Shown: one piece after another, positions 5,489-64,000 of the stretch
Numbering within the stretch: the stretch's first letter is position 1
Layout of the letters: every line of letters starts with the position of its first letter
Virus record (IMG/VR): IMGVR_UViG_3300037478_000520
Coordinates: 49,661-113,660 of that record
Source: a virus
Reading direction: 5' to 3' (one strand)
DNA: 64,000 nt
The notes under the pieces: model-generated
Told to the model about the DNA's origin: nothing
Seen by the model: only the letters and a program-made list of their open reading frames with translations
Databases searched by the model: none
Position numbers and translations under genes: made by a program

Positions 5489-5562
5489 GTTTTCCCAAAC
5501 GGTTCCGCTGAGTTAGGGGTATCCGGTTGTTCGCCGTTCGCTGACGACGTACGCTTTTCGCT

Positions 5563-6624
5563 ATGCGCACGACCATCTTCCTATTTGCGCTCGTCGCGGC
5601 ATGCGCCGCGGAGCAAGCCCCCACCACGCCCTCTGAGCCCGTCCAGCGCGACGCCGTGACGCTCGGTACCGGCGGTGGCGCGCGGGCAGTGCGGGGCGAC
5701 GTGGGGCTTTCTCTGGCCGCGTTTGGCGACGATGGCGCCGACGATCCGAGTGGCCAGGGTCCGAATGGCCCAGGCGGCGCGGTCGACCCTTCGGAGTCGA
5801 CTCCGGACCCTCCTGAGCAGCTGGCCGGCACGGACATGCCGGTTGCCGGAGGCGGGGCGCCGGAGCCGGTGGATTCGACAAGCGACGTTGCGAGCCCAAT
5901 CCCGAGCGGTGAGTTGGCCAACTTGCTGATCGTGTTTGATCGCTCCCAAAGCATGGGGGAGCGGTGGAGTGGTGAGCCGCGCTGGCAAGCGGCCGGCCTC
6001 GCCGTTGCCCGTGCCATGAGCGCGTTGCAGCCCGACCACCTCGGCGCCATCACGACAGGCGCTGTGCTTTTGCCAACGCCGGACCCGAACGCTACGCCGA
6101 CATGCGTCGAGCCCTCCGGGGTTACCTGCGTCTTCGTTCCAGGCGAACCGGCTGACGCGGACAACTGCATGGTAGCGCCCGGGGCGACCTCGCACATTGC
6201 ACTCACGTCGGGCTACGATTTCTTGGACGCGTTCACCGTTGGGCCAGATGGAGCGCCGTTCTACTTCCCGATTCAGAGCGGCTCCACGCCTCTGAGGGAG
6301 GGACTGCTAGAAGCTCAGCGCGCGCTCGGCGACGCGACTCTTGTGGGGCAAACCGCCGTGGTCGTGATCACAGACGGCGAACCGGACTGCGGATGGGACG
6401 CTAGCGTCGCCACCAGCGTGGTGGCCGAATGGCGCGAGCAAGGCATCATCACCTACGTGATTGGGCTGCCCGGCCCAGACGGGGCGTTCGCCGGTGGTGC
6501 TGGCGGGGCATCGGCACTGAATGCCATTGCCGTGGCGGGCGGAAGCGTGTCGATGATCACGCCGGGCAGCGCTCCGGGCATGCAAGCTAAGTTGCTGTCG
6601 ATCTTGCGTGGCGAGGCGCTGTGA
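5563..6624 (+). CDS. von Willebrand factor A domain lipoprotein (moron on the opposite strand to the tail operon)
   Basis: Lipobox LVAAC, Pro/Gly/Asp linker, MIDAS motif DRSQSM, TPL, VVITDGEP, TYVIG. Confidence 0.85.
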   Translation: MRTTIFLFALVAACAAEQAPTTPSEPVQRDAVTLGTGGGARAVRGDVGLSLAAFGDDGADDPSGQGPNGPGGAVDPSESTPDPPEQLAGTDMPVAGGGAPEPVDSTSDVASPIPSGELANLLIVFDRSQSMGERWSGEPRWQAAGLAVARAMSALQPDHLGAITTGAVLLPTPDPNATPTCVEPSGVTCVFVPGEPADADNCMVAPGATSHIALTSGYDFLDAFTVGPDGAPFYFPIQSGSTPLREGLLEAQRALGDATLVGQTAVVVITDGEPDCGWDASVATSVVAEWREQGIITYVIGLPGPDGAFAGGAGGASALNAIAVAGGSVSMITPGSAPGMQAKLLSILRGEAL

Positions 6625-6811
6625 AACCCTGCAAAGAGTCTGAAAAGCCAATCGGTCAAACCGCGATGGACTGTCCGCATTGCGGGGCTAACCCCGCATC
6701 CCATCCAGCACCGCGCACAGCATCGCAATCGCGACGATCAGCGTTGCGAGATCGATAGCGTCGATCATTGTTCTGGCCTGTCTGCCACCCCCGGATGTGG
6801 GCGACGTCTGA

Positions 6812-7003
6812 TTCGCGAGAGGTCCGGTGGCGCGAAAACCCCGGGGACCGCTCGCAAACTGGCTAAGAATGCGGGGATATTAGCGAAATCCGATGGTCGT
6901 CAGCCCAAAGCAGCTTCCGTGGTAAACGTCCTGTAGCGCGTAGCGACAGGCACTCGCAAACCGACTTGCAAGCGCGTGGGATCTTTGACAATCTAGCGGA
7001 CCT
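6812..7003 (+). promoter_or_regulatory. CRISPR leader of array 1
   Basis: 6812-6859 matches 43804-43851 (47/48) and 6966-6997 is identical to 43959-43990 (32 nt). The blocks lie at nearly the same distance from the first repeat of each array (192 vs 193 nt). Confidence 0.85.
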
Positions 7004-7627
7004 GTCGCACAAGGCCCTCGGCGCCTTTGAAGCCGAGACTCCTGTGCTCCGGGCGGGGCGACCATTGCGAGGCAGTGTCGCACAAGGCCCTCGGCGCCTT
7101 TGAAGCCGAGACTTGTGCTCGAGGGCGCGCAAGGCATCGGAAAGTCTACCGCGGTCGCACAAGGCCCTCGGCGCCTTTGAAGCCGAGACGTGGGGGCGAG
7201 CGCGGTGGCGCGCGCCGGACTCGGGTAGTCGCACAAGGCCCTCGGCGCCTTTGAAGCCGAGACCGGCTGCAGGACGTGCTGGATTGGCTTGCGAGCCGGG
7301 GGGTCGCACAAGGCCCTCGGCGCCTTTGAAGCCGAGACGTGATCAGCCGCGTAGACCGCCAGCAGCGTCCACGCGGTCGCACAAGGCCCTCGGCGCCTTT
7401 GAAGCCGAGACTCTTGTTCTTGCATCTCTCCAAGAATCGCCCTATGGGGGTCGCACAAGGCCCTCGGCGCCTTTGAAGCCGAGACCCCAATCCCAGGTCG
7501 GAGACGGAACTCGCGCAGTCGTCGCACAAGGCCCTCGGCGCCTTTGAAGCCGAGACCGTAGGTCTGTGAGCACGTGGTGCAAGCCGATGGAGTATCACAA
7601 GGCCCTCGGCGCCTTTGAAGCCGAGAA
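7004..7627 (+). CRISPR. CRISPR array 1 (orphan): 9 repeats, 8 spacers of 35-41 nt
   Basis: 36-nt repeat GTCGCACAAGGCCCTCGGCGCCTTTGAAGCCGAGAC at 7004, 7077, 7154, 7228, 7303, 7376, 7450, 7521. Degenerate terminal repeat GTATCACAAG...GAGAA at 7592. Stem CTCGGC/GCCGAG. Confidence 0.98.
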
Positions 7628-7651
7628 ATCAGATGAAGTGCGCCTAGTGCG

Positions 7652-9790
7652 CTAGATCAGCAACCCGGGAAGTCGAACGTAGACCGGATGAACGCTCAAG
7701 CTTAGCGCGATCGACCCGCCACTCGAGGCGATTGTCGACGTTCCTCCGACGACGTCGGTGAGAGTCGCCGTCCCGACCGCGGGGTGGTTGTAGGCGCTGG
7801 CGACGGTGGAGTCACGCTTCCACACCGCTAGCCTCACCACACCACCGTCGTTCACAAATTCGAAGACGTACTGGTTACTGTTTCCCGTGGCGATTCGTCG
7901 GACAAACCGAAAGCTACCAAGCTCTTGCGCGAGCACGCCGGCGGCCGTCATCGCTGGTCGACCGTTGATGAAGAAAACCTCCTGTCCGCTGGTGTTTGCT
8001 CGCAGATACCAGCTTCGGAAGCGCACGCCGCGTGACAGCCCAAACAGGAAGTCACGCACGTGATAGCTCGCCTGGAGCAGGTTTTGCGTAGCCCCGCCGT
8101 CAGTGCGCCACCCGTGCTCGGAGTTTAGGATCGTTCCGACGTCATGCCCGACAAGATCCCAATACGAGTCGTAGTGGGCTTCCTCGGGCGCCCGCCCTGC
8201 GGCCATGTTGTCCGTCGGGCTGAAAGACTCCGCCGTGTAGAAGTGGACGCTTACGCGATCGAGCAGTGCCACCACGCCGTTGTCGATTAGGCGCTGCAGG
8301 TACGCCTGTGCGACGGACAGGTTCACGCCTGTCCCGGCCAAACCCGGCCCGGTGATAAAGACGTTGGGGTCCGCAGCGCGCATCGCTGGAATCACCACAT
8401 GCGCAAGCGCCGAGTACTCGTCCGCCGCTGCGAGTGCCCCCTCCAGCGTGTTCACCATCGGCCAGAAGTTCGAGATGTTAGGCTCGTTCCCAAGCTCGAA
8501 CATCACCTTGGCGCCAGCCCAGTGCGCCGCCGCGGCAGCCGCGAAGTTCGCATAGGCCGTACGTCCTCCGGCGTCATATGGAGGAGCCGACCCGGCGCCG
8601 TAGATGGGCGTATTGTGCGTCATTTGCAAGTTCTGCAAAACGCCGATCCCAAGGGCGTTGAACTCGTCGACGATTCGATCGTAGTTGGGCGCCGTCGTCC
8701 AGTCGTAGACACCCTCCGACTCTTCGATGTCAGACCAGTAAAGGCGAGACCGGACCCACTTGAAGCCGTCCGCCGCGACGTCGGCCGCGTAGACGCTGAC
8801 GTCGCCAGGATTCACCCCAAGATTCAGCGACAGGCCATCCGTCGCGTAGTCAAGAACGCCAAGAGCGCCGCCGAGGTCATCAGCCTCAAGCGAACTACCC
8901 GGCGAATACGCGCCTATTTCCCACTGAGACATCAGCGCTTGCTCGGCTTGCGACTGGTTTGTCTCGTCGTGGGCTACCGAGTAGCACAGAAGACGCCCGA
9001 ACAGCTGCTCGACGTTTGTTCCTCCGAGATTGGCGCCAACGGCGACCATCCCGTAAACAGTATTGAAGGTTGGCGTGCCTGTGCCAACCAACGTTCCGTT
9101 TTTGTGCATCGTAAGGGTGCCCGAGGCTAGCTTGATGCACCACACGGCCCACTCTTCGTAGCTGTGCTCGTTCGCATTCACTTCGCCAGAGGTTGAGGTG
9201 AACCGAGCGAAGTCCGGAGTTCCTTGGCGCATTTCGACTACAAACGCGCCAGCTGTGCTGAGGCTACCGCTGACGAAGATCCAATTCGTCGCCGCGTTGT
9301 CCGCGACTTTTCCAACCCAGTACCATGTACGATCGGCAGCGCCCGTTGGCAGTCCTACCGGGCCTGTCTTCGCATTGCTCTCGCTTGACCCGTTGTAGGC
9401 AATGCAGTCGATGCCGCTTGGTGCACCCGCGGCAACGATCTGACCTCCGCTGTCGCCGCCCATCGGTGTCGCGTGGTTGTCGTTGCCGCTGGCGTCGTTC
9501 AGCGACGTGACTTCGGTGCCCGATAGCCCGTGATTCCCGGAGCTAGCGTCCCAATCAAGCACGAGATCGTCCGTCGGGACGAGCAATTCCACTTCGTTTT
9601 CTGGCTGTTGCTCTGGGACTTGTGGCGATGGGACAGGAATCTGTGGATCTTCAGGCTGAAGCAACCCGGCTTCATCGAACCAGCCAGCCCACATAGCGGC
9701 CCACGATTCGGCTGCTTCCTCTGTACTGCCAGGACGAGCCGCGAACAGAGCAAGCACGTCGTTCACGATCCTGGTGTTAGTTAGCGCCAT
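7652..9790 (-). CDS. Virion-associated LamG/ConA-like domain plus clan GH-A (GH5/GH39-like) glycoside hydrolase
   Basis: N-terminal D.SGNDNHAT...LamG-type beta domain. C-terminal WVRSRLYWSDIE...GVYDW, acid/base motif ELGNEPN, VSVHFY, nucleophile motif NSEHGW. Confidence 0.78.
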   Translation of the reverse strand: MALTNTRIVNDVLALFAARPGSTEEAAESWAAMWAGWFDEAGLLQPEDPQIPVPSPQVPEQQPENEVELLVPTDDLVLDWDASSGNHGLSGTEVTSLNDASGNDNHATPMGGDSGGQIVAAGAPSGIDCIAYNGSSESNAKTGPVGLPTGAADRTWYWVGKVADNAATNWIFVSGSLSTAGAFVVEMRQGTPDFARFTSTSGEVNANEHSYEEWAVWCIKLASGTLTMHKNGTLVGTGTPTFNTVYGMVAVGANLGGTNVEQLFGRLLCYSVAHDETNQSQAEQALMSQWEIGAYSPGSSLEADDLGGALGVLDYATDGLSLNLGVNPGDVSVYAADVAADGFKWVRSRLYWSDIEESEGVYDWTTAPNYDRIVDEFNALGIGVLQNLQMTHNTPIYGAGSAPPYDAGGRTAYANFAAAAAAHWAGAKVMFELGNEPNISNFWPMVNTLEGALAAADEYSALAHVVIPAMRAADPNVFITGPGLAGTGVNLSVAQAYLQRLIDNGVVALLDRVSVHFYTAESFSPTDNMAAGRAPEEAHYDSYWDLVGHDVGTILNSEHGWRTDGGATQNLLQASYHVRDFLFGLSRGVRFRSWYLRANTSGQEVFFINGRPAMTAAGVLAQELGSFRFVRRIATGNSNQYVFEFVNDGGVVRLAVWKRDSTVASAYNHPAVGTATLTDVVGGTSTIASSGGSIALSLSVHPVYVRLPGLLI

Positions 9791-20624: not shown

Positions 20625-21179
20625 TCAATCCTTGCCGGATTCGGCTTCGGCCTTTTCGATCTCTACGTAGAGGCGATCTGCGCCCCAACGCTTGTCGACC
20701 TTGACGCCCGCCTTCTCCGCCATCTCCCGGAGTTCGTCCAACTCGGACTTGTCCTCTGTGGACTCCTCCTCTGGAGGAACTTCGGGCACCAGCTCCGCCT
20801 TTGGCTCCGTTTCCAGCTTCGGCGGCGGTGAAGGCGGCTGCACGGTCGACTTCTCCGCCATCTCCCGGAGTTCGTCCAACTCGGACTTGTCCTCTGTGGA
20901 CTCCTCCTCTGGAGGAACTTCGGGCACCAGCTCCGCCTTTGGCTCCGTTTCCAGCTTCGGCGGCGGTGAAGGCGGCTGCACGGTCGACTTCTCGATGGAC
21001 GGCTTGGGCGGTTCAAGCGGCAAGCCTCCAGGTAGTTGCTTGCGCAACTCGAGAAGCCGCAACTCGTACCCGTGCGCCTGCTCCTGCATGAGGCGCCGGT
21101 GCTCGGACATGGGGATCGACGATGGCGTGGGAGGCGCATTTCCTACCCCCACGCCATGTCGGAATGAAACGCGACCCAT
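20625..21179 (-). CDS. Pro/Glu-rich protein downstream of the capsid gene
   Basis: C-terminal ELREMAEKAGVKVDKRWG..RL motif; contains an internal 46-aa duplication. Confidence 0.65.
   Translation of the reverse strand: MGRVSFRHGVGVGNAPPTPSSIPMSEHRRLMQEQAHGYELRLLELRKQLPGGLPLEPPKPSIEKSTVQPPSPPPKLETEPKAELVPEVPPEEESTEDKSELDELREMAEKSTVQPPSPPPKLETEPKAELVPEVPPEEESTEDKSELDELREMAEKAGVKVDKRWGADRLYVEIEKAEAESGKD
20712..20993. repeat. Perfect 138-bp tandem duplication
   Basis: Unit starting CTTCTCCGCCATCTCC at 20712 and 20850. Confidence 0.9.
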
Positions 21180-28648: not shown

Positions 28649-28708
28649 TTTTTTGTGCACCCAGCGCTTGACACCGTGGGCCGCAGCGCGCATAGTTCTT
28701 GTGCACCC
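28649..28708 (+). promoter_or_regulatory. Early promoter/operator copy 1
   Basis: TTTTTTGTGCACCC, TTGACA (28668), 17 nt, CATAGT (28691), then TCTTGTGCACCC. Confidence 0.8.
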
Positions 28709-29140: not shown

Positions 29141-29198
29141 TTTTTTGTGCACCCAGCGCTTGACACAAGAGATGCCAGGCGCCATAGTTTCTTGTGTG
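29141..29198 (+). promoter_or_regulatory. Early promoter/operator copy 2
   Basis: TTTTTTGTGCACCCAGCGC, TTGACA (29160), 17 nt, CATAGT (29183), TTCTTGTG. Confidence 0.8.
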
Positions 29199-29249: not shown

Positions 29250-30465
29250 ATGCGAAAACACCTGAACACAATTTGGCCGCGCGACGTCGCGGTAACCGCG
29301 GGTTGGCTGACGATCGCGACCGGGGGCTTTGCCTCGCTTGTGCTGCCGTTGCTGCAGCTGGGAGGTGCGCTGTGATCTACCGCGAGGACAACACGGAGGG
29401 GTACAGCGCTGCGGCGCTGGCTGAGCTGAACCGCCGCTGGGCCGAGCGCCACGCCGATCTCGACCCCGACGGCCAGGAGGGCAAGGTCGCTGCCGAGCTG
29501 CTACTCGCTGAGTTCGACGCCGAGATCGACCGCGGAGGTGCGCTGTGACCGACACCGAAAACCTGGATCTTTGCACGCACGTACAGTTCAGCCGGGGATC
29601 GCGGTCCTACCCTGGCACCGAAGCTGACTGGCAGGCGTACCTGTCCCACGGGGGGAAGGGGACGCTGACGCGCTTACTGGCAGCTGAGCACGCGGGCGAG
29701 TGTCCAGCGTGTGCGAAGATCGCGGAGTCGGAAGGCGGTGCGCTGTGACGAGCTACACCGTACGCGGAGAGCGTGTCACACTCGACCGCGAAGGCGTCGC
29801 GCGGTCTCTAGCGCACGAATTGCGCGAGGTCGAACGGCTTAGCGCTGGTCGCTACAACCGCGACGAGCTTGCCGACACGCCAGCCGAACGCTGGGCTTAT
29901 CTGCTGTGGTCGAGATCCGAGGTTGCGCGCTTCGCGGCGATCCTACAGTGCATCGACGATAGCGTCGCACAGCTGCCCAAGACACTCTACCCCGGGGCTC
30001 CGCTGTGACGTTCTCGCACTTTTTCGGCGGCATGGCGATGTGCGGTGTTCACGTTGCGATCTACACGATCGAGGGGTCAAACGACGTCATCGCGCGTCTT
30101 GAGACGACCGGACGGAAGCCGATCGCTGCTCCACTGCGACTAAGCCAGGAAGAGCTCAAGGCGATCCCTGGGAACAAGACGAAAAGCCTTGCGCATCTGA
30201 TCAACGCCTGCAATCGGGGGTCGCTGTGATCGCGGACGCCACCACGCCCGCCGATCACTCCGCGTTCGTGCGCGAGCTGACAGCGCTCTGCCGCGCGTAC
30301 GGCGTAACACTCGACCTCCGGGCGGGCGATGGGTGCCCGCCCGAAGTCGCCTCCGCAGTCCGGGACGCGGATGTCGAAATTGTCCTCAGGCCGATCGACC
30401 CTAGCGACCTCGGAGAGTGGACCGAAACGAATTCAGGCGCGGTGTACTGGCCGATTCGCGAGTGA
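29250..30465 (+). CDS. Chain of six small coupled hypothetical genes (29250-29375, 29372-29548, 29545-29748, 29745-30008, 30005-30229, 30226-30465)
   Basis: Each junction is a GTGA stop/start overlap preceded by a GGAGGTGCGCT-like sequence. Confidence 0.7.
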
Positions 30466-30547
30466 ATGGCTGGCGACGGGGCTTGGACTTCGGCCGAGCC
30501 CCAACGCGAGCGACTTTTTTCACTTCGAACAACAAGGGAATACCGCC

Positions 30548-31075
30548 ATGACATCTTACACTGTAATCATAACGTGGGCGCTCGCCGCTAGCGCTGGGAC
30601 CGGACAGACAACCGTCTGCTTTGAGGCCGCATCGCCCGACCCTGCCAAGGCGGCCGTGGAAGCGTGGCGGACCCCCGTCACGCACAGCGGTTCCGCTGTA
30701 ATCGAGTGGATGCCCGAAACCGCTGTAATCGCGTCCGTGCGGGCCGTGGCTGACGGGTGCGGCAAACATGCCCGCCCGTCCATCGCCAAGCCGCCCGAGG
30801 CGACAATCCTCGAGATTCCCGCTGCGACCTATCCCGCCACCGTCCACTACCGCACGCCCGACGGATCGACGGCCCGATGCGACGCGACAATCCTGTGCTC
30901 CGGGCGGGGCGACCATTGCGAGGCCGTGATAGACCCTGGCGCCTGCACATCGCACTGGGGACTTGAGCAATGTCTCGCCAGCACCGTGGCCGTACCCGGC
31001 GACGATTCCGCCGATACCCTGGGGTGCGACCCGGGCGCCCGGCTGCTCGATATCGACTGGACGGACCCGCTGTAA
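30548..31075 (+). CDS. Hypothetical early protein containing the protospacer of array 1 spacer 1
   Basis: ATG 30548 after AAGGGA; 30891-30927 matches spacer 7040-7076 at 36/37. Confidence 0.65.
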   Translation: MTSYTVIITWALAASAGTGQTTVCFEAASPDPAKAAVEAWRTPVTHSGSAVIEWMPETAVIASVRAVADGCGKHARPSIAKPPEATILEIPAATYPATVHYRTPDGSTARCDATILCSGRGDHCEAVIDPGACTSHWGLEQCLASTVAVPGDDSADTLGCDPGARLLDIDWTDPL

Positions 31076-41409: not shown

Positions 41410-41717
41410 AAGGCCCTTGGTACATCACGCTGGCCGCCGTCGAGCACTGGATGCGCGTCCGCCGCTACCCCGACGACGACGCGCACTTTGAGCGCGCCGA
41501 GGACGAGCTTTTCGGGTTGATCCAAGGCGCCAAGCTTCGCCAGACTGACGCTGAAGGCCGGCAGCTGTGGCGCATAGGCCGACCGCACAAAGCCCGCATG
41601 ATCGTCGACACACGCAAGCTGGAACGCGTGGACGGACGCGACTTGCCGCGCCTGATCTGGGTTGGTCAGGGCCACCCGCCACACTGGTGCTGGACGAAAG
41701 AAGGAAACATTGACTAG
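41406..41717 (+). CDS. Hypothetical protein, possibly RelE/ParE-like fold
   Basis: GTGA-coupled; WYITLAAV...RQLWRIG...RMIV...LIWVG spacing is reminiscent of RelE folds (weak). Confidence 0.45.
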   Translation: MKGPWYITLAAVEHWMRVRRYPDDDAHFERAEDELFGLIQGAKLRQTDAEGRQLWRIGRPHKARMIVDTRKLERVDGRDLPRLIWVGQGHPPHWCWTKEGNID

Positions 41718-41828
41718 AGCGCCGATCAGAGAAGGGGAGATCGCCACAGTCACCAAACGACTGCGCGTCACACCCGAGCAAGCCGAGGAGCTGGAGCGGG
41801 CTCCAGCGCAAAAGAAGGAAACTTGAAA

Positions 41829-43928
41829 ATGCAAACCATCGCCTACAAATACCGGATCCTTCGCGTGCTCTCCGACGAGCGGGCTATCATGGACGAGATC
41901 CGAGCCGGTCACCGGCTCTACAACGATCTAGTCGCCATCGAGCGCAAGCGACGGGCCGCGACCGAGGCGTTCTGGGCTGAGCGTGGTGGGTACCAGGATC
42001 TTCTGGCCGAGCGTGGGAAGGCCATCGAATTCGCCGAGTCGATTCCCAAGGGCGATGATCGGCGCGAGGAGAAGCGCGCGGCATGGCGCGCTGTGAACGA
42101 TCTGCGTAAGCAGATCTGGGAGTGCGAGAAGGACGCCATCAAAGCGTTCCACGCGAGCGATCCCGTGAAGATCCGCAGGATGGAACGCGCCAAGGAACTC
42201 CGTGCTGCTGCGAAGGCGCGCAAGGAAAAGCTAACGGCGAAAAAGATCGCGGACATTCTTGACGAGGAACCAGATTGCCTGACCGAGCGGGATAAGCTGC
42301 GCAAAACGCTTATCCAGAGCTACAAGGATCGCGGCGTCGGGATCAGTGCGAAAACCGTGGCTGGCAAGCTCGCAGAGGCATTCCCTGGTCCGACGGAACA
42401 CGTCGAGCAGGAGGCGAAAGCCGCGGCGTACACAGCCTATCGCGAACGCGGTGTTACGCCCGGTACGCGCGCGGTGGTTGCGGACGCGCATGAGCGCTCG
42501 CTTGAGATGCTCGAGTGGCGAGAGCAACGCTTCAAGCCGTGGTCCGGCCACGGCGCATTCGGAACGCAAATCCAAGGAGGCGCGACGTACGGCGACCTAT
42601 GCAGTGGCAGCCACACGTTTGCTCAACTGGAGTGCCTCGACCGCGGCAACTACACTCCTGGATCTCGCCGGCATGGCAGTCTGCACAGGCTACGCGTGCG
42701 CCTTGGGTCGGACGGTCAGAAGCCCGTCTGGGCGGAATTCGAAGCGAGCCTACTTCGCAGCGGCCCGCGTACGTCCGCGTCGACATCGGATCCGATCCCA
42801 CCCGATGCGCGCGTAATGCAAGTGCGCGTGGTGGTCGACCGAATCGGCGTGCACGACCACTGGTACGTCTGTTTCACGGCTCAGGTTCCGGACGCCGTGC
42901 ACTTGCGGGATGAGCCGCCGACGAAGGGCGGGACGGTGGCCATCGACATTGGGTGGCGCAGTTTGGACGGTGGTTTGCGGGTCGGATACTTCCACGACGG
43001 GCAAGAGCACGGCCCCATCGACCTGCCAACGATCCGCAAGCGACTCAAGCCGCACGGGAAGCGAGGCGCCAAGGCGAAGTGGTTCGAAGTGCGCGACGTG
43101 TTCGATCACGCGAGTCACATCCAAGGGATCCTGTCTCAGGAATTCTACTCCGAGGACAAGGATGCGGCCGTGTACGGCGGCGCCTTGCATGACCTAGCGG
43201 TCTGGATCGACTCGCGCGGGCGCGATGCTCTCCCCGAGTGGCTCTCCGAATCTACCGCCGGGATCCGACAGTGGCGTTCGCAAGCTCGGCTCAACGGACT
43301 AGTTGAACGATGGCTTCACAACCGTTTCGAGGGCGACGGTCAAATCGTCGCTCGCATGGATCAGTGGCGCAAAGACTATAGGCATTTGCATGAATGGTGC
43401 GCGCGGGAGAGAAACCGCGCCCTGAACGCGCGCGACGAGCACTACAGGCAGACCGCGCTACGCCTCGCGCGCGCGTACGAAACGATCGTGATCAACGGCG
43501 CCGACCTTGCAACCACGCGCCGCCGCAAACGGAAAGAGAAGGCCGCCCCCGAGCTGGTCATGGTCGAGGATGCGAAGCGTTCGCAGGCCTTCGACGCCGC
43601 GCCGGGGAAGCTCCGGGAAGAGATCGTAAAGGCGGCAAAGAAGTACGGCCGGACACTGGTCAAATTGCCGTTCGAAACCGAGAGGTGTCACGTTTGCGGG
43701 GAGGTGTGTGAATTTGACCGTGCCCGCTATCTCTCACACAAGTGCGAGCACGAGCCATGCACAGCACAGTGGGACCAGGACGCCAACGCGTGCCTGAATG
43801 CCCTTCGCGAGTGGTCCGGTGGCGCGAAAACCCCGGGGACCGCTCGCAAACGCGACAAGCCCGCGAAGTCACGTGAGAAAACGACGGGGCGCGGCGACGC
43901 AATAGGCGCTGTGAGCGATTCGCTGTAG
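41829..43928 (+). CDS. cas12m: Compact type V CRISPR effector, V-U1/Cas12m-like (TnpB-derived RuvC protein), 699 aa
   Basis: ATG 41829 after AAGGA. Motifs YKY, GHRLYNDLVAIER, RF..W.G.G..G.QIQGG, R.R.GS...P.W, RIG....WYV.FT, RuvC-I VAIDIGWR...GLRV, QWRS.ARL, RuvC-II IVINGADL, AAPG.LR, Zn finger CHVC/CEHEPC, RuvC-III WDQDANA..N. A CRISPR array follows immediately. Confidence 0.85.
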   Translation: MQTIAYKYRILRVLSDERAIMDEIRAGHRLYNDLVAIERKRRAATEAFWAERGGYQDLLAERGKAIEFAESIPKGDDRREEKRAAWRAVNDLRKQIWECEKDAIKAFHASDPVKIRRMERAKELRAAAKARKEKLTAKKIADILDEEPDCLTERDKLRKTLIQSYKDRGVGISAKTVAGKLAEAFPGPTEHVEQEAKAAAYTAYRERGVTPGTRAVVADAHERSLEMLEWREQRFKPWSGHGAFGTQIQGGATYGDLCSGSHTFAQLECLDRGNYTPGSRRHGSLHRLRVRLGSDGQKPVWAEFEASLLRSGPRTSASTSDPIPPDARVMQVRVVVDRIGVHDHWYVCFTAQVPDAVHLRDEPPTKGGTVAIDIGWRSLDGGLRVGYFHDGQEHGPIDLPTIRKRLKPHGKRGAKAKWFEVRDVFDHASHIQGILSQEFYSEDKDAAVYGGALHDLAVWIDSRGRDALPEWLSESTAGIRQWRSQARLNGLVERWLHNRFEGDGQIVARMDQWRKDYRHLHEWCARERNRALNARDEHYRQTALRLARAYETIVINGADLATTRRRKRKEKAAPELVMVEDAKRSQAFDAAPGKLREEIVKAAKKYGRTLVKLPFETERCHVCGEVCEFDRARYLSHKCEHEPCTAQWDQDANACLNALREWSGGAKTPGTARKRDKPAKSREKTTGRGDAIGAVSDSL

Positions 43929-43996: not shown

Positions 43997-44915
43997 GTAT
44001 CAGAAGGCCCTCGGCGCCTTTGAAGCCGAGACCAGATGGCGTTGTGCATCTGGTTGTCGAGCCGCCGGGTATCAGAAGGCCCTCGGCGCCTTTGAAGCCG
44101 AGACCGCGACTGGCTTCATTCGGTTACTTTTTTCGATACTCGTATCAGAAGGCCCTCGGCGCCTTTGAAGCCGAGACACGCCCATGTCCGAGCCGCAGCG
44201 AAGCGCGTCGCCTCGTATCAGAAGGCCCTCGGCGCCTTTGAAGCCGAGACAGGGGGACCGCTCACCCGCAAGAGCGCTTTCAGCCGGCGGTATCACAAGG
44301 CCCTCGGCGCCTTTGAAGCCGAGACCCGCACGTCCGGATCGGCGAGCACCGGCGGTACGTGAGTATCAGAAGGCCCTCGGCGCCTTTGAAGCCGAGACTC
44401 TTGTTCTTGCATCTCTCCAAGAATCGCCCTATGGGGGTCGCACAAGGCCCTCGGCGCCTTTGAAGCCGAGACGCGCGCTGGAATGGTGGCGCTGCGCATC
44501 GGCGCGATCGTCGCACAAGGCCCTCGGCGCCTTTGAAGCCGAGACTAACACCCGGGCGCTGTTACCAAACACCCCAAGGCAGGGGTCGCACAAGGCCCTC
44601 GGCGCCTTTGAAGCCGAGACCGCGCGGCGCCGAAGCCGAAGGCGAAGCCACTCGCGCGCGTGTCGCACAAGGCCCTCGGCGCCTTTGAAGCCGAGACACG
44701 GGAGTCATCTTCGTGACCGGAACGAATACCCAGTCGCACAAGGCCCTCGGCGCCTTTGAAGCCGAGACTGTTTGGCGACGGCGCGAACTCCAAGTCGACC
44801 ATCCTCGGTATCAGAAGGCCCTCGGCGCCTTTGAAGCCGAGACACTGATCACGACCTACGCGAGGTGGTCGCCGACGTGGTATCACAAGGCCCTCGGCGC
44901 CTTTGAAGCTGAGAT
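43997..44915 (+). CRISPR. CRISPR array 2: 13 repeats, 12 spacers of 35-41 nt
   Basis: Repeats GT(AT/CG)CA(G/C)AAGGCCCTCGGCGCCTTTGAAGCCGAGAC at 43997, 44069, 44142, 44215, 44290, 44363, 44437, 44510, 44585, 44662, 44733, 44808. Degenerate terminal repeat at 44880 (...GCTGAGAT). Confidence 0.98.
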
Positions 44916-55644: not shown

Positions 55645-58173
55645 TCACCGGTCACTCCAGTGTTGATCGTTCACATCTTCAGGGTCGTGGTGGTTGTCGA
55701 GGTTGGCGATTCGGATGTAGCTACCTTGCCATGCCAGATTGCGAACTCCTGTCTCACCATCTCGTTGCTTCGCAACATTGATCTCAACGATGCCCTTATT
55801 CTTGCTTTCCTGGCCATAGTAATACTCGTCTCGATATACGAGCATGATAGCATCCGCATCCTGTTCGATGGCTCCGCTGTTATGCACTACCATTCCTGAC
55901 GCCACGAAGTTGTTAGGGCCAGGCACTTGTAGGTCTGCCACACGCACTGGCTTATCCTGCTTGCGCACCTCCAGAACGCAACCCCAGCCGACGCCTGGGG
56001 TTGTCATGTACGGCGAACGCGCAATGGTATCGAGCCCTGGCGTCCACTTCACGATGGCTTCCATGTCGCGCTTGCAGATCAGCTTGTGTGTGCCGTCGGT
56101 GCGACGCTGGAATCGCCGCGCCGTAGACAGTTCCGCCGCAAGGTCGACGAAGATTTGAGGAGCAGGGTCAATCCGCGCAGGGTCGGGTTCGGCCAGAACA
56201 CCAAACCGCCCAGGGGCGTTCACGATGGGTGACATCCTCGCGCTGTCGACGGTGCTCGCACGAACAGTCCACAGTCCATCATGGAGGCTAACCGTCGACC
56301 TCACACCAACTGTAAGCAGAAGCCACGCGACTTGACGTGCCAACAACTCGTTGACCGTTGAGTATTTGGCATCCCCATTCGTGACTGTGCCGTCTGATTC
56401 CCAAAGCCCGCGTAGCAGATCGATGTGTGTCTCGTCGCTGCTCCCAAGGTATGTTGTCGGAACGGACTTGTCGTGCGCCGTCTTGCCTTCCAGCCCCAGC
56501 TCCCTGATCCAGCCCATCAACGGGTTCGGACTGCACCCGGACTCCACACCGTTCGACAAGTACGCGTCTACCACGCACTCGCACTTCTGGTTTTTCCGAG
56601 CCTTCACATCCACGCCGAACGCCGCCACAGCGGCTCTCACGTCTGCATCCAGCTCATCGCGGTAGATCAGCGAAGGCGTTCCCGATAGCCCGCCGTTGCC
56701 AAGAAGCCACCCAAGAAGGCGCGCATGCGGTAACGCGCCACGGTTGGCGTGAGGGATTCGATTGGGTGCTGCCACAACGTCGCGGCCGGGCTGCAAGTGC
56801 CGAGCTTGCTTGTATCCCGTCCCTGTTAGGACGAGATGCCGAGGCGTCACCCGGAAGCGCCCAAACTGGGTCACGACCTCGATCACGCTGTTGTGACGCT
56901 TCGGAACGTAGGAGCATGGATTTTCGGTCACCCCCGAGGCCGTCGAAGAGATCACGCTCGACGGGCGCGATCCAAGTTGAACGGGTCCGCCCGCGGTGTA
57001 GACCCATTCATCGATCGGCAGACATTCCCTCATATCAGAGATCATCGGGCGTTTGTCTGCGCGCGACTCGACAGCTCTATTGAGTTGCGACAAACACAGG
57101 ACCGGTACATCACACTCATGCGCTAGCGCCATGAGCGACCTCGAGAAGTAGGATACCTCTTGCTCGCGAACTTGGAATTTGCGACTGCTCCCAAGCAACT
57201 GCAAATAGTCGACCAGTACGACGCCGAGTTTTCCGCCGTTCTTTCTGCGAAGCCTCTTCGCGTTCCTGACCACCGACTCAACGTGCTCACCAGGTCGATC
57301 CGCAAAGTACAGCGGCAACTTGGAAATGTCGTTCGCTGACTCGCTTAGCCGGCTCCACTCCTCATTGGTGAATTTTGCCGTCTTGACCTTGTTGAAGAGT
57401 ACGTTGGCCTCTGACGCCATCATGCGGTGTCCCCATTGCCGACGACTCATCTCGAGACTGACGACAAACCCAGGAAGGCGCGATTTTTTGACAATACCAA
57501 GTGTCAGATCCTTCGCAATCGTGCTCTTCCCGCTCCCGGGGCGTCCGGCGATCACGTAGATTTTCCCAGGCTCAAACCCTGAAAGCGTTTCGTCTATATC
57601 TGGGAACCCCGACATGTGCCCAGCTAGACCGCCGCCACGGTCAGCGTGGGCAACAATCCCCTGGAAAGCTTCTGCGATAACCTCTGAGCACGTGTACACG
57701 TCTCCGTGATTGCCTTGGTTTGCCTCCAGAGATTCGCCTAACAAACTCTCCGTGTGTCCGAGAAAGTCGTCCAACGATCCGTAGTCGCCATACCCAAGTG
57801 AGGCGGTTTTATGGCAGGCCGAAATAACGCTACGGACGATCGACTTCTCGCGCACGATCTTGGCATGAGACAAGATGTTAGAGATGATAGGAATGGTGCT
57901 CGTAAGCTCTAACAGGTAATCGTCACCACCAACGGCAGTAAGATAGCTTTTTGTTATCAACCTTTCACGCAGCGTCACCGCATCGACCGGAGAATTTACC
58001 GATCGCAACTCCAACATGCACTCGAAGATCTTTGAGTGCGCATCGCTGTAGAAGTCGCTAGCCACGACCGGCACATCATCGATTTCGTCGAAAGCCTCAC
58101 TCTCGAGAAGAAGCCCGCCGAGCACAGATCGCTCGGCTGACAGGTCGTGCGGTGGCTGGCGACTGACGGTCAT
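55645..58173 (-). CDS. dnaB: Replicative DNA helicase with intein
   Basis: PPHDL.AE.SVLG, AGRPGSGKST, SLEM, VDYLQL, LSQLNR, SDMRE/SGAIEQDAD, KQRDGETG. Confidence 0.96.
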   Translation of the reverse strand: MTVSRQPPHDLSAERSVLGGLLLESEAFDEIDDVPVVASDFYSDAHSKIFECMLELRSVNSPVDAVTLRERLITKSYLTAVGGDDYLLELTSTIPIISNILSHAKIVREKSIVRSVISACHKTASLGYGDYGSLDDFLGHTESLLGESLEANQGNHGDVYTCSEVIAEAFQGIVAHADRGGGLAGHMSGFPDIDETLSGFEPGKIYVIAGRPGSGKSTIAKDLTLGIVKKSRLPGFVVSLEMSRRQWGHRMMASEANVLFNKVKTAKFTNEEWSRLSESANDISKLPLYFADRPGEHVESVVRNAKRLRRKNGGKLGVVLVDYLQLLGSSRKFQVREQEVSYFSRSLMALAHECDVPVLCLSQLNRAVESRADKRPMISDMRECLPIDEWVYTAGGPVQLGSRPSSVISSTASGVTENPCSYVPKRHNSVIEVVTQFGRFRVTPRHLVLTGTGYKQARHLQPGRDVVAAPNRIPHANRGALPHARLLGWLLGNGGLSGTPSLIYRDELDADVRAAVAAFGVDVKARKNQKCECVVDAYLSNGVESGCSPNPLMGWIRELGLEGKTAHDKSVPTTYLGSSDETHIDLLRGLWESDGTVTNGDAKYSTVNELLARQVAWLLLTVGVRSTVSLHDGLWTVRASTVDSARMSPIVNAPGRFGVLAEPDPARIDPAPQIFVDLAAELSTARRFQRRTDGTHKLICKRDMEAIVKWTPGLDTIARSPYMTTPGVGWGCVLEVRKQDKPVRVADLQVPGPNNFVASGMVVHNSGAIEQDADAIMLVYRDEYYYGQESKNKGIVEINVAKQRDGETGVRNLAWQGSYIRIANLDNHHDPEDVNDQHWSDR
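55879..57024 (-). mobile_element. Intein (382 aa) with LAGLIDADG homing endonuclease
   Basis: Starts CLPIDEWV, block B T.RH, LLGWLLGNG and LLRGLWESDG, ends NFVASGMVVHN followed by Ser. Confidence 0.93.
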
Positions 58174-59390
58174 GGTTTGGCGTCCCCTGCCTGGGGTTCG
58201 GCGTCTTTTGCCTTCCGCGCTAGTTCGGCAGCCTGCTCCAGCAGGCGTCCCATCCGCCCTCCCGCGACAGGCCAGGGCCGCTGCGGCCCGTGCTGCGGCA
58301 AGGCCACCTCCTCAGCCTCGGCTGATCGGGGCCGCGGAGCCCAGCTTCCGGCGGCCCCGGGAGGCGGTCCGCTCATTCGGCGCGAGGATGCCCCAGGAGG
58401 CCCGCCGTTGGCCGATGGGTAGGTCACCCCGTCTGTGGGCACTCCGAGGCATCTGAGCCAGTGCTGGAGGCCCTGGCGCCGCATGAAATCGGGTCGGTCT
58501 CCCAGCAGGACGCGGATCTGGACCTTGAGGTCCTCGGGACCGTCGCATTTCGCCGCCAGGGCACGCAGGTCCGCCCGGTGCACGCCCGACCAGTTCAGCC
58601 GGCAGGTCGGCAGGTCGCGCTTGCGGCCGGTCCCCTCGGCGTAGGCCGTCGCCAGGGCTTCCCACGCGGCGTCTGGGTCCGGACCGGGCGAAGCTTGCTC
58701 GGGGGATCCCTGGTCGGCCGGGGCCAGGGCATGCGCCGCCTGGGACGCTGACAGATCTGCAGGGATCTCTAATTCATGTTGGGTCGGGTCGGGCCGGGCT
58801 GGGTCGGGGGGGACACTCGCACGTGCGTGCGTAGCCTGTGCGTATCCAGCTACGCACGAACATGCGTATCCAGACTCATAGCGCCTGTCACCTTTCCTTG
58901 AGTTGCAAGAAACGCATGCAATAACGCAGTTCTTTAGAGATGTTCCGCCGCCCTTGCGCCTCGGGACAACGTGGTCAACCGTGCCTGTCCGTTCGGTAAG
59001 TTTCTCTCCGCAATAGTGGCAAGACCCGCCGCACTTCTCGATGAGTTTGAGCTTGAAACCATCTCGTGATTCGGATGTATTTGCGCGTTTGTACTCGCGA
59101 TTGGCTCTGATTTGGGCCTTCGTTGGGTTGTAATCCGCCCAATCGATGAAGAAGTAGCTGTCGCCTTCTTCGTGCCAAAGGCCAGCCGTGACGAGTTCTT
59201 TTGCGGTCTTCGGCGTGAACCCAAACAATCTGACGCACGCGTGGGGAACACGGCCGTCCAGAAGATGTCGACTGCTATACGCGCCAGCGCAAAGCCAAAG
59301 CCCAAGCGCTTGACGTCCAGCAGCGGTCTTCCTCAGCGCCGTTACCTTCGGGTGGTCATAAAACCCATCGTCGACCTTGAACCACGGCAT
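58170..59390 (-). CDS. Phage replication initiator with an internal HNH domain
   Basis: MPWFKVDD.FYDHPKV...GLW..AG.YS...DG, LV.AGLW, DW.DYNP; then CHYC..TVDHVVP...GG....N...AC..CN..KG. Lies directly upstream of dnaB. Confidence 0.75.
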   Translation of the reverse strand: MPWFKVDDGFYDHPKVTALRKTAAGRQALGLWLCAGAYSSRHLLDGRVPHACVRLFGFTPKTAKELVTAGLWHEEGDSYFFIDWADYNPTKAQIRANREYKRANTSESRDGFKLKLIEKCGGSCHYCGEKLTERTGTVDHVVPRRKGGGTSLKNCVIACVSCNSRKGDRRYESGYACSCVAGYAQATHARASVPPDPARPDPTQHELEIPADLSASQAAHALAPADQGSPEQASPGPDPDAAWEALATAYAEGTGRKRDLPTCRLNWSGVHRADLRALAAKCDGPEDLKVQIRVLLGDRPDFMRRQGLQHWLRCLGVPTDGVTYPSANGGPPGASSRRMSGPPPGAAGSWAPRPRSAEAEEVALPQHGPQRPWPVAGGRMGRLLEQAAELARKAKDAEPQAGDAKP

Positions 59391-59586
59391 CAACCGACCC
59401 TCCTGTCCGCCCCATGCAGCGAGCACGGCCGCCCAAACCGCCGCTCGTGCTCACACCCTCGGCATGGCTCCCCGGGGGCCATGGGAGCCACATTCGTCCA
59501 CGCAACGCGCTTGTCGAACTCCACGCTGGCGGTGCGCGCGACCCCGGCGTCGTGCGCGGTTTCGAGGCGTGCCTGTGCGCTACTGC

Positions 59587-60510
59587 TCATCGACGCTCCT
59601 CAGGCTTGAGCCAGGCGAGATAGATGCCTGCCAACTTGGCGTGGTCGTCCACCCACCCAAGCCCCGCGAGTTGGTCGACTGAAACCCATCCCACGCCGTC
59701 CAGATCGTCCGCGCCCTTTGCGGAGCCGTGCGCGTAACGGCAATGGAACAACGACGTTCGCCACACGCCACCGCCCTGGCGATCGCGCCATGTCTTGATC
59801 GCGCCAGACCAAACGTGCGTCCAATGCCCGGCCTCCACGCCCGTCTCTTCCGCTAACTCCCGCTTGGCGGCCGCTAAGTCGGTATCGTCGCCCGGGTCAA
59901 CGTGTCCGCCTGGGAACCGGTGCGCCCCACCCTCGGAGGCTCTACGGCCCACCAACACCTCGACCTTCTTGTCGTAGAATCCGCGACGTGAGCAGATGAC
60001 GTCCACGCAGGGATAGATCGGCGTGTAGCGGTTGTACGCAGCGTAGATCAGGCCCCTGCGAAAGCTCGCGTGGTTCTCAACCTTCGAACCATCAATGTCC
60101 CGGAGATCGGTTCCGGATAGTTTGGATACCGGATCAATCTCCACGGTTGGGTGTTTGCCAAGATATCGCCCACGGAACGAATCGCGCCCGCCGTACAGAG
60201 TGACCGTGTCCCTTGGGTAGAGCGCTGAAATCGCCGTGTCGAGCGACGATGACCACCCGGTGTCCGTGTACTGGTCAACCATTGGGAACACCTGCGCGCG
60301 CTGGCATGCTTCTTTGATCATCTGCTCGCGCGTCGGATAGTCGAGCGGGTCGGACTTGGTGTTCAACTGCGCTGGCTGGACTCCGACGAAAACGCACAAC
60401 TTGGAGTGCTTGTCGGCTTCTGCAAGCACCGCGAGGTGCCCTTCGTGCAGGTCAGCAACCTGGAAGCGGCCCACAACAACGCCGACGCCTTTGCGTGGAG
60501 GCTGCATCAT
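59587..60510 (-). CDS. nadM: Bifunctional NMN adenylyltransferase / Nudix hydrolase
   Basis: GRFQ...H.GH, PL....R..M, SGT..R; Nudix box FPGG.VD......AAKREL.EETG. Confidence 0.88.
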   Translation of the reverse strand: MMQPPRKGVGVVVGRFQVADLHEGHLAVLAEADKHSKLCVFVGVQPAQLNTKSDPLDYPTREQMIKEACQRAQVFPMVDQYTDTGWSSSLDTAISALYPRDTVTLYGGRDSFRGRYLGKHPTVEIDPVSKLSGTDLRDIDGSKVENHASFRRGLIYAAYNRYTPIYPCVDVICSRRGFYDKKVEVLVGRRASEGGAHRFPGGHVDPGDDTDLAAAKRELAEETGVEAGHWTHVWSGAIKTWRDRQGGGVWRTSLFHCRYAHGSAKGADDLDGVGWVSVDQLAGLGWVDDHAKLAGIYLAWLKPEERR

Positions 60511-61898
60511 AGTGCCGCCCGATCCCTAATCTCGTCGAACGTGTGTCGTACCTTGATCTCGCCGTCGCGGAAGACTTCGACGAGTTGATCGGGCTCGTCT
60601 TTCCACTCCAAACCGTCCTGTCTAGTAGTGACGTACTCGCCGCCTTCGTTTCTCACCAGCTTCAATCGACCTCGCTTGCTAGCCTTGGACGGCATGCCGG
60701 TAGGATCCTTGTAGACGTCTCGCGTGAACCAACTGCCTTTGACGTGCGAGCATTTGAATGCGAATGAGAGCGTGTCACGGTCCAACTTCTGGAGAAGTCC
60801 TCCACCGGAGCCGAAGGCGACGTTGTCGGTCGACCAGCCGTCTTCGTTGATCACTCTTAGGACTGACCTGAGCATGGGCAAATCAATGCCATCCCCCTGG
60901 ATCACGCGGACCTGAGGCGGTAGCACCATGTAGCCATGGGAGTTTCTGGTATAGCCGAACGCCCTCCCGAGCTCGCGAAGGACCATCAGAACGCTGTCAC
61001 GCGGGTCGCCGCTGTCCGGACGAACAACAAGCGTACCTTCGCGTTTGAGGACGAGATCTCGCAGCTCCCCACCCCAGTATTCCCGGCAGGCTCGGACGAT
61101 GTCGTAAGAGTCGCTGACGCATGCAACGATTCCGGTTGGGTACGTCTCCAGTAGATTGCGGAATGCGTCGACCTCTGCCGCTTTGCCCCAACTCGTGATC
61201 GTACTGTGCTCCGTCGCAGGAATTGAGAACCCTGGCATACCCGCGTCGTAGTACTTCCGCGCGAGTTGCACCCCCGCGAACGTGTCCGTGCCAGCGAAGT
61301 TGACCAAGTGCGCAGCACCCCCGATTGCGGCTTGTTCGAAGCACGAAACACCGCGAAAACCGAAGTCGTGGAGCTTGAATGGCAGCCCGGAAGGGTCGCC
61401 AGTGCGCGATAGCGAATCAGCTATTACGCGCTTCATTTCTCGGGATTGCGTCGCGACGGTGCACGGATACCAGACTTGCACGAGGTAAGTCTCAAGCCAG
61501 TTGGTCAGCCAGTAACACTCCCGGTCGGTGTTCTCGATCGTCATGAGCACGTTACGTGTCGGCACGACCGTTCCCTCAGGAACCGCGCGGATCACGACGG
61601 GCAGGTGCCCACCATGCTCGTTGGCGATGCGCATCCAACCCGCGGCATTGAAGTGGTCGGCGCCAAAATGCTCACCCCATAGAGCCGCCGCTTGTTCGAC
61701 CATGACGGGCGTGACAACACACCCTTGAAGTCGATCGAGCATGTACTGAAGCCCAAAGAACACCACTTCATCAGCCCACCCATCCGGGCGCGCCCGCGCC
61801 TCCATGTACGAGTAGACATTGGTAGTGCCACGCGGATACTGCAGGGCGTGCGTGACCTTGTAACTGTCGGTGGCTAGCGCAATGTTGAAATCGAGCAC
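60507..61898 (-). CDS. nadV: Nicotinamide phosphoribosyltransferase
   Basis: TDSYKVTH..QYP, FFGLQ, LHDFGFRG, HLVNF.GTDT, PATEHS, VSDSYD, VRPDSGDP, IQGDG, FGSGGGLLQ. Confidence 0.96.
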   Translation of the reverse strand: MLDFNIALATDSYKVTHALQYPRGTTNVYSYMEARARPDGWADEVVFFGLQYMLDRLQGCVVTPVMVEQAAALWGEHFGADHFNAAGWMRIANEHGGHLPVVIRAVPEGTVVPTRNVLMTIENTDRECYWLTNWLETYLVQVWYPCTVATQSREMKRVIADSLSRTGDPSGLPFKLHDFGFRGVSCFEQAAIGGAAHLVNFAGTDTFAGVQLARKYYDAGMPGFSIPATEHSTITSWGKAAEVDAFRNLLETYPTGIVACVSDSYDIVRACREYWGGELRDLVLKREGTLVVRPDSGDPRDSVLMVLRELGRAFGYTRNSHGYMVLPPQVRVIQGDGIDLPMLRSVLRVINEDGWSTDNVAFGSGGGLLQKLDRDTLSFAFKCSHVKGSWFTRDVYKDPTGMPSKASKRGRLKLVRNEGGEYVTTRQDGLEWKDEPDQLVEVFRDGEIKVRHTFDEIRDRAAL

Positions 61899-63630: not shown

Positions 63631-64000
63631 AACTTCTCCATGGCCCAGCCGAGCACGCCAGGCGCGACGGGCACGACGATCCCGAGCCCGTGTTCGTAGG
63701 CGTCGCGAATGCCCACCGTGTACTGCTCGGCAGGTGCGTCGACCCATCCTTTGAGCGCCGCGTAGCGGTGCACTAAGGCGTCCCAGGCGTTCCTGGCGTT
63801 CCAGGCGTTCCTGGCGTTCAAGGCGGCCCAGGCGTCCCAGGCGTCCCTGGCGTTCAAGGCGGCCCAGGCGTCCCTGGCGTCCCAGGCGTCCCAGACGTAC
63901 CAGGCGGCCCTTGGGGTGCAGTCGGACGACGGGTACTCTTGCAGCTCCCAGTCAATCAATCCTCGTGCGTCCAGCGCGGCGCGCAACCCGGCGATCACAG
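63627..64000 (-). CDS. Hypothetical protein with AW(D/N)/AR(D/N) tripeptide repeats, 5' end outside the window
   Basis: 9-nt repeats (CCAGGCGTC-like) at about 63775-63910; ATGA-coupled to the DUF5131 gene. Confidence 0.6.
   Translation of the reverse strand, partial: VIAGLRAALDARGLIDWELQEYPSSDCTPRAAWYVWDAWDARDAWAALNARDAWDAWAALNARNAWNARNAWDALVHRYAALKGWVDAPAEQYTVGIRDAYEHGLGIVVPVAPGVLGWAMEKL

Follow-up and report, generated by a model that had tools for sequence, protein, structure and literature searches.

Type V-M CRISPR-Cas systems, represented by MmCas12m2, GoCas12m (PDB ID 8pm4), PmCas12m, and the structure of PDB ID 23vw, are the closest described relatives of the locus presented here. 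Cas12m orthologues bind their target and do not cut it, whatever their RuvC triad, read a heteroduplex of about 18 bp, and form a roadblock to replication once bound (PMC11013384). Their mature guides are about 17 nt long, and single mismatches within the first 11 to 12 nt abolish the activity (bioRxiv 10.64898/2026.03.26.714355; bioRxiv 10.64898/2026.10.26.761838). Escherichia coli remains viable with an engineered Cas12m and a spacer against its chromosome (PMC13639370), and V-M systems show an enrichment on plasmids and occur in some prophages (PMC11656645).

A natural case of a non-cutting effector with a spacer against the carrier's own genome is the type IV-A1 self-targeting CRISPR interference of Pseudomonas oleovorans (Guo et al. 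2022, cited in PMC11656645). According to the account given in PMC11656645, this natural system represses a host gene, the spacer is tolerated and acts as CRISPRi, and the repression, by a multi-subunit bacterial system with a chromosomal target and a functional PAM, was shown experimentally; in contrast, the locus described here is a single-effector type V system on a phage, its target flank is not a known PAM, and it is known from sequence alone. A natural CRISPR self-regulator (the type IV-A1 pilN spacer, Cas9 tracr-L, and CreR-type RNAs) would be expected to have a guide-target pair retained among relatives with the system, a functional PAM at the self site, and a target at a promoter or 5′ end, whereas the phage protospacer lies in the middle of an ORF. 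Viral mini-arrays share with the phage arrays that they are virus-borne, lack adaptation genes, and hold a spacer from a near-identical relative, but they borrow host effectors and cut the competitor, whereas the phage brings an effector predicted to be binding-only, and 25 of its 26 spacers are not kin-like. Leader-proximal self-targeting spacers were reportedly interpreted by Stern et al. in 2010 as transient accidents of autoimmunity, and self-targeting spacers as transient autoimmunity have been reviewed since (PMC6990116). The phage arrays have in common with such accidents a self-match at the putatively newest position and, in sister arrays, older self-matches with mismatches that would disable them; classical autoimmunity involves nucleases and is lethal or leads to loss of the system, whereas here a self-match would cost no more than silencing or a replication roadblock. 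In the literature searched, we found no description of phage-borne Cas12m arrays that match their carrier phage.

The stretch of DNA analyzed here (the window, 64,000 nucleotides) comprises bases 49661 to 113660, the right-hand 64 kb, of a 113,660-bp linear IMG/VR contig with an estimated completeness of 82%, and a window position equals the genome position minus 49660. The record belongs to a tailed phage, with a large terminase, a Mu-type portal, a ClpP-like prohead protease, a capsid protein, a DUF2586 sheath-like protein, and a tape measure protein. The structural module holds a tandem duplication of 138 bp in perfect register, with 98% identity between the copies (window positions 20704-20979), and a DnaB helicase gene with a LAGLIDADG-domain intein (55645-58173, minus strand) is followed by an HNH endonuclease gene (58170-59426) and a NAMPT gene (60507-61898). 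Close to the end of the window, at least 15 tandem 9-nt units (63758-63937) encode (Gly-Thr-Pro)n on the minus strand, a collagen-like run that probably belongs to a fibre gene running off the window.

The effector gene (41823-43928, plus strand) encodes a Cas12m-like protein of 701 aa. The preliminary description had assigned the system to Cas12m, and this assignment is right: phmmer matches residues 233-664 in the PDB to 23vw_A, named “CRISPR-associated DNA-binding protein Cas12m” (E value, 2.4e-36), and to 8pm4_A (E value, 7.3e-13). The Pfam Cas12f1-like TNB domain scores 22.1 bits, under its cut-off of 26.3. The protein is 24 to 30% identical to characterized Cas12m and about 100 aa longer (701 aa, against approximately 580 to 615 aa for known V-M effectors). 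By alignment, its RuvC triad consists of D375, an Asn for the RuvC-II Glu, and D653, where the RuvC-II Glu of 23vw aligns with the Asn of TIVINGADL; this D-N-D triad differs from the published Cas12m triads D-E-D, H-D-D, and N-D-D. The same Asn is present in 6 of the 8 closest homologues, which are 32 to 58% identical and all metagenomic. The family precedent and the Glu-to-Asn exchange at RuvC-II suggest that the effector probably binds DNA without cutting it.

The nearest genome-borne Cas12m-like genes are 23 to 26% identical and come from a Myxococcales MAG and a Planctomycetota MAG. We see a weak hint at Planctomycetota as the host phylum, and a terminase search for host clues gave no close cultured relative. 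On the contig of the Planctomycetota MAG (JANQEJ010000327.1, L028, positions 5515-8175), degenerate and irregular repeats flank the 23%-identical Cas12m-like gene, and these repeats have the core of the phage repeat (GGCAGCTCGGCGCCTTTGAAGCCG.GAC).

Array 1 (7004-7627, plus strand) is composed of nine repeats of 36 nt, the last of which is degenerate, and eight spacers. It is preceded by a leader of about 190 nt (6812-7003, plus strand; repeat families D4 and D8), which duplicates both the array 2 leader and the 3′ end of cas12m and contains the motif CCGCTCGCAAAC, conserved in the leaders of other phage Cas12m systems (G004, locus L006; G001, locus L013; and L014). Array 2 (43997-44915, plus strand), with 13 repeats and 12 spacers, lies directly 3′ of cas12m. 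Array 3, with six spacers, is located outside the window on the minus strand (genome positions 42083-42560), and about 500 bp from it a solitary repeat on the plus strand (genome positions 41521-41556) is followed by a T-run. One repeat and one leader are common to all three arrays. The repeat ends in a 3′-terminal 6-bp hairpin followed by AC, and in array 3 the stem covaries (CTCAGC/GCTGAG), with a compensatory G-C to A-U change. A 36-nt repeat with a 3′ handle hairpin beside the spacer is the architecture that marks V-M, and it is also found in G004 and G001. The phage further shares with known V-M systems the homologous effector, a single crRNA orientation, the lack of adaptation genes, an altered RuvC site, and carriage on a mobile element, and is unlike them in having three dispersed arrays on a genome of about 114 kb, with one spacer that matches the carrier. 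By its effector and repeats, the system is best classed as a divergent phage-borne member of type V-M.

The orientation of the arrays follows from cas12m lying on the same strand as array 1, the leader motif CCGCTCGCAAA, which is likewise present in other phage Cas12m leaders, the degenerate distal repeats, and the repeat 3′ hairpin. Cas1 (Pfam ID PF01867) was not found in the 113,660-bp, 82%-complete record, whereas the control genomes were positive.

Several spacers are related to each other. Spacer A1.6 (7412-7449) is identical to A2.6 (44399-44436), including the flanking repeats, and two repeat variants (GTCGCAC... and GTATCAG...) occur side by side in the arrays, which are thus recombination mosaics rather than simple duplicates. 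Spacer A3.1 equals A1.3 save for one G in a G-run. Spacers A2.5 (window positions 44326-44362) and A3.2 (genome positions 42412-42451) overlap by 21 nt (20/21 identical), and merged they encode an excisionase/HTH_17-like peptide (..PHVRIGEHRRYVMAEVIAD); from their sequences, we regard them as acquired separately, from two alleles of a single foreign gene. A likeness of A2.12 to the end of A3.2 (14/16) was discarded, being too short and without extension. Spacer A3.4 (genome positions 42262-42299) encodes, in sense orientation, LICGASTGGLLA, a patatin GxSxG-type motif, for which a degenerate search of 185,579 species genomes gave 0 hits, with no encoding gene.

The leader-proximal spacer of array 1, A1.1 (7040-7076, plus strand, 37 nt, between two 36-nt repeats), matches a protospacer in one of the phage's own genes (30891-30927, plus strand). 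Direct alignment bears out the 36 of 37 identical positions given in the preliminary description, and none of 100 dinucleotide shuffles equalled this match. Spacer and protospacer are on the same strand, and the sole mismatch is at 30925, spacer position 35, where the gene has C and the spacer A. In the frame of the ORF (30548-31075), positions 30923-30925 form the Ala codon GCC, so that the GCA of the spacer is synonymous, as had been claimed. The 5′ flank was also read correctly as GACAA (30886-30890, plus strand; -3 to -1, CAA), and the array orientation places the PAM side there. The codons at the flank are GAC-GCG-ACA-ATC, and position -2 (30889) is the wobble base of the Thr codon ACA.

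Against the whole 113,660-bp record, A1.1 is the only one of the 26 spacers that is self-derived. The best identity of the other 25 is only 26/41, a search with the 17-nt seed, allowing up to two mismatches, gave no self-match besides A1.1 (reversed-seed controls gave three chance hits), and no spacer other than A1.1 shows protein-level similarity to the phage. By these comparisons, A1.1 alone is taken to originate from DNA of the phage's own kind. Its status as the newest spacer is deduced from the leader-adjacent position; as the arrays are recombination mosaics (A1.6 equal to A2.6, and two repeat variants), their polarity is plausible rather than proven.

The mismatch at position 35 lies beyond the 17 to 18 nt of guide that Cas12m reads and would be irrelevant to binding. 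With a perfect seed and the mismatch outside the guide, only the PAM could separate self from non-self. The preliminary description gave 5′-TTN as the PAM of characterized Cas12m, which is correct for some of them but too narrow: the published PAMs are TTN (Mm and Go), YTN (Pm), YTTS (Mk), TTV (Pp), and “T- and C-rich” (PMC11013384; bioRxiv 10.64898/2026.03.26.714355). All of them have a pyrimidine (T or C) at -2, where the self flank CAA has an A. AC forms the 3′ end of every repeat, both in the phage's arrays and in nine other phage Cas12m-like arrays, so that an A at -2 is also the arrays' own non-PAM. Purine-rich PAMs are used by other type V effectors, namely AAN by Cas12n and RTR by Cas12h. 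Judged by the published PAMs, which belong to effectors 24 to 30% identical to this one, binding to the phage's own copy is most likely absent or weak. As -2 is a wobble base, a sibling with ACT or ACC would present CTA or CCA with an unchanged protein. The Thr codon ACA is not rare, accounting for 14% of Thr codons genome-wide and for 5 of the 19 in the target gene.

A single flank could be rebuilt for a foreign target: from the overlap of A2.5 and A3.2, the protospacer of A3.2 has the flank ATCG, with pyrimidines at -3 and -2. Searches of viral contigs, cultured phages, and genomes revealed no external protospacer for any spacer. The wobble-degenerate protospacer, the core of A2.5/A3.2, and A1.6 had 0 hits in viral contigs, array 1 had no match in cultured phages and only repeat-like hits in 15 Cas12m-bearing viral records, and array 2 gave only weak GC-rich hits across repeat/spacer borders in 401 Planctomycetota genomes.

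The target gene (30548-31075, plus strand, supported by the GC3 frame plot) is an ORFan of 175 aa with a Cys-rich C-terminal half. It has no Pfam, PHROG, or ESM Atlas hit, and its AlphaFold2 model reaches a pLDDT of 44. The protein falls into an eight-member 90% cluster that comes from several data sources and is confined to this phage lineage, and the residues that the protospacer and its flank encode (Thr-Ile at the flank) are unchanged in all eight variants. The nearest upstream promoter-like element, TTGACA-17-CATAGT (29160-29188, plus strand; repeat families D7, D9, and D17), has TTGTGCAC motifs alongside, and a near-identical copy, also flanked by TTGTGCAC, lies at 28668-28696. The target is about the sixth small ORF after the element at 29160-29188, and the protospacer begins 343 nt into the ORF and about 1.7 kb downstream of the element, which is neither the promoter nor the 5′-end placement of the natural CRISPR self-regulators; a mid-gene site is not what would be expected of an evolved switch. 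The elements are part of a repeated cassette (TTTTTGTGCACCC...TTGACA-17-CATAGT...TTGTGCAC) bordered on either side by the palindrome GTGCAC (28649-28696 and 29141-29188). Variants of the cassette are found near 32747, 35396, 36628, and 38203, and the cassettes are probably regulated early or middle promoters of a single class that share an operator.

A1.1 is the sense sequence of the gene, and its crRNA would therefore pair with the template strand. For dCas12a, pairing with the template strand is the effective roadblock orientation. MmCas12m achieves 57-fold repression at a promoter and 23-fold repression from within a coding sequence (bioRxiv 10.64898/2026.10.26.761838). By analogy, repression from the 30.9-kb site would be mechanistically possible if the CAA flank is accepted.

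With the target protein and Cas12m as single queries, viral contigs yielded no close relative of the phage, and a metagenome scan found two short contigs, L004 (100% identical at the protein level) and L005 (96%). Both have GCC together with the same CGACAA flank, so that the GCA allele is absent from all three genomes compared (the phage, L004, and L005) and neither relative has a PAM-bearing flank. L004 lacks 42 bp just upstream of the start of the target ORF (window positions 30463-30504), and L005 is rearranged upstream of the ORF, which marks this region, in the sequences compared, as a strain-variable hotspot. The preliminary description had proposed that the spacer came from close kin and that the phage escapes through a non-PAM flank, and had named a relative with the GCA allele and a TTN flank as the check; the two relatives do not provide one. 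The proposal itself gains from a spacer allele unlike all three genomes, from the silent nature of position -2, and from repeats that have an A at -2, and it is weakened by the lack of a PAM-flanked sibling among the two relatives compared.

We surveyed other phage Cas12m-like systems with a profile of the effector and its homologues, which identified 15 IMG/VR contigs with distant Cas12m-like genes, nine of them with arrays. The spacers were compared with their own records (eight whole records and the first 170 kb of G005; G007 and G015 are mutual kin), about 130 spacers in total when this phage is included. Exactly four genuine self-matches were found, in this phage and in three of the nine other array-bearing records, and no cross-matches between unrelated records. 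In this phage, the match is to the first of eight spacers (36/37, mismatch at position 35, flank CAA, mid-gene in an ORFan). In G004, the first of six spacers matches perfectly (36/36, flank CCC) at 12 to 47 nt upstream of the start codon of a structural gene, the gene after a terminase-like ORF. The third of at least five spacers of G001 matches its own cas12m (36/38, mismatches at positions 6 and 28, flank TTC) in the conserved N-terminal helix, with one of the differences being Leu/Phe. The eighth of nine spacers of G007 (L018) matches a DUF2213 prohead gene (34/35, mismatch at position 6, flank GGG); here the difference is Ser/Pro, and the kin record G015 has the same allele as G007. The distant phage systems thus have self-matching spacers against unrelated genes.

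Among these few cases, the seed is intact in both leader-end self-matches, and the two deeper ones have a mismatch at seed position 6 and show non-synonymous differences. The non-synonymous difference from self indicates that the spacers of G001 and G007 derive from sibling alleles. Mismatches in the seed abolish binding in PmCas12m and MmCas12m (bioRxiv 10.64898/2026.03.26.714355; bioRxiv 10.64898/2026.10.26.761838), and by analogy the phages' own copies in G001 and G007 should escape. The older seed-mismatched self-matches in the sister systems point to avoidance of self-binding rather than to its use. As a separate observation from the surveyed contigs, G012 (L026, C1:25200-25600) has at about positions 170 to 210 of the locus a solitary repeat-like unit (...CCCTCGGAGCCTCTAAACCCGAGAC) directly before an RBS and ATG, and the gene start thus occupies the position of a spacer.

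The reading that we prefer, with a probability of about 0.42, is that A1.1 is a tolerated recent spacer from a sibling or from the phage itself, without a selected role. Its source would be a strain-level sibling with GCA, or the phage before a silent change, and in a phage without Cas1 the uptake would go through a host adaptation machinery sampling abundant phage DNA. With an effector that only binds, the self-match would not be lethal and could persist; the mismatch at position 35, outside the guide, would give no protection, binding of the own copy would rest on the PAM alone, and a CAA flank with A at -2 would leave that copy unbound or weakly bound. The self-match would then be a by-product of spacer uptake and not an evolved self-regulator, and spacers from the phage's own lineage would be retained wherever the matching site in the carrier has no PAM or a different seed. 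Against this reading, CAA could be accepted by an effector so divergent from characterized Cas12m (24 to 30% identity), the template-strand crRNA would have the effective roadblock orientation for an effector family that represses within coding sequence, leader-proximal spacers are best placed for expression, and the recurrence of self-matches across phages could equally mean use. We doubt that A1.1 is instead selected for kin exclusion, kept to silence or to block the replication of co-infecting siblings with a pyrimidine at -2 (ACT/ACC) while the carrier is spared by its ACA. The GCA allele is not the carrier's and so would come from another genome, CTA (a YTN PAM) or CCA is one silent step from ACA at -2, and the spacers of G001, which has a TTC flank and would target the N-terminus of a sibling cas12m while its own copy differs at seed position 6, and of G007, with its Ser/Pro difference from self at position 6, fit this picture. 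The siblings that were found speak against it, both being GCC and CAA without a PAM-bearing flank, as do the Thr-Ile kept at the flank in all eight protein variants, the frequency of ACA, which gives no sign of a selected PAM change, and a target that is not obviously essential. Kin-like spacers are moreover limited to 1 of 26, phage-like at the DNA, seed, or protein level, which argues that targeting of kin or self is not the main use of the arrays.

The preliminary description had also suggested that the phage represses its own early gene. Here, CAA would be accepted and the A1.1 crRNA would park Cas12m on the template strand at 30.9 kb, blocking transcription from the 29.16-kb promoter, with the effect that the distal target gene and the genes behind it are shut off, as a programmable early-gene shut-off or feedback. 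We consider this unlikely. It draws on the perfect seed, with the first 34 positions all matching, on a non-cutting effector that makes self-binding viable, on the roadblocking by MmCas12m inside coding sequence, on the type IV-A precedent as reported in PMC11656645, on the perfect leader-proximal spacer of G004 just upstream of a start codon with a CCC flank, and on cas12m ending a same-strand gene block, such that guide and effector could accumulate after early transcription. Yet CAA is outside every published Cas12m PAM and has the A at -2 of the array repeat end, roughly 1.7 kb separate the site from the promoter, the gene that holds it is an ORFan, the older self-matches of the sister phages are mismatched in the seed, which selection against self-binding would predict, and stable binding would obstruct the phage's own replication. 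The array and target were read from a metagenome consensus record, and the strain with A1.1 may carry another target allele, another flank, or no such gene, in which case there would be no self-match on a single molecule. Such an assembly chimera would be in line with a linear IMG/VR contig of 82% completeness, with strain variants of the region that co-occur in one metagenome (the 42-bp deletion of L004 and the 94.6% identical L005), with leader ends of arrays being the most strain-variable part of a genome, and with a spacer allele unlike the assembled target. Three independent target sequences share the protospacer and flank, however, and self-matches of this sort, present in four phage records that are independent of each other, would hardly arise if each were an artefact, so that we regard a chimera as very improbable.

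The self-match is moderately interesting alone and more so as one of a recurring set. Cas12m is a natural “dead” Cas12, and a seed-perfect self guide makes its role on phages testable. The locus raises the question of which PAM rule separates self from target in this divergent clade of larger Cas12m proteins, and of what self-matches cost binding-only CRISPR systems. If the pattern of seed mismatches holds in a larger sample, it would indicate a CRISPRi-type autoimmunity that phages resolve through point mutations while keeping the system. If the 30.9-kb site is bound, this would be the first natural virus that regulates itself with CRISPR. A broader idea, which seems rather unlikely to us, is that phage Cas12m arrays routinely take up and use spacers from their own lineage, either as allele-specific weapons that depend on a silent PAM base or a seed base or as repressors of their own genes. 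In the allele-specific version, self and sibling would be told apart by ACA versus ACY at -2 in this phage and by position 6 in the sister phages. If this is true, the 30.9-kb self-match would be one instance of a general, unreported use by phages of binding-only CRISPR on near-identical genomes.
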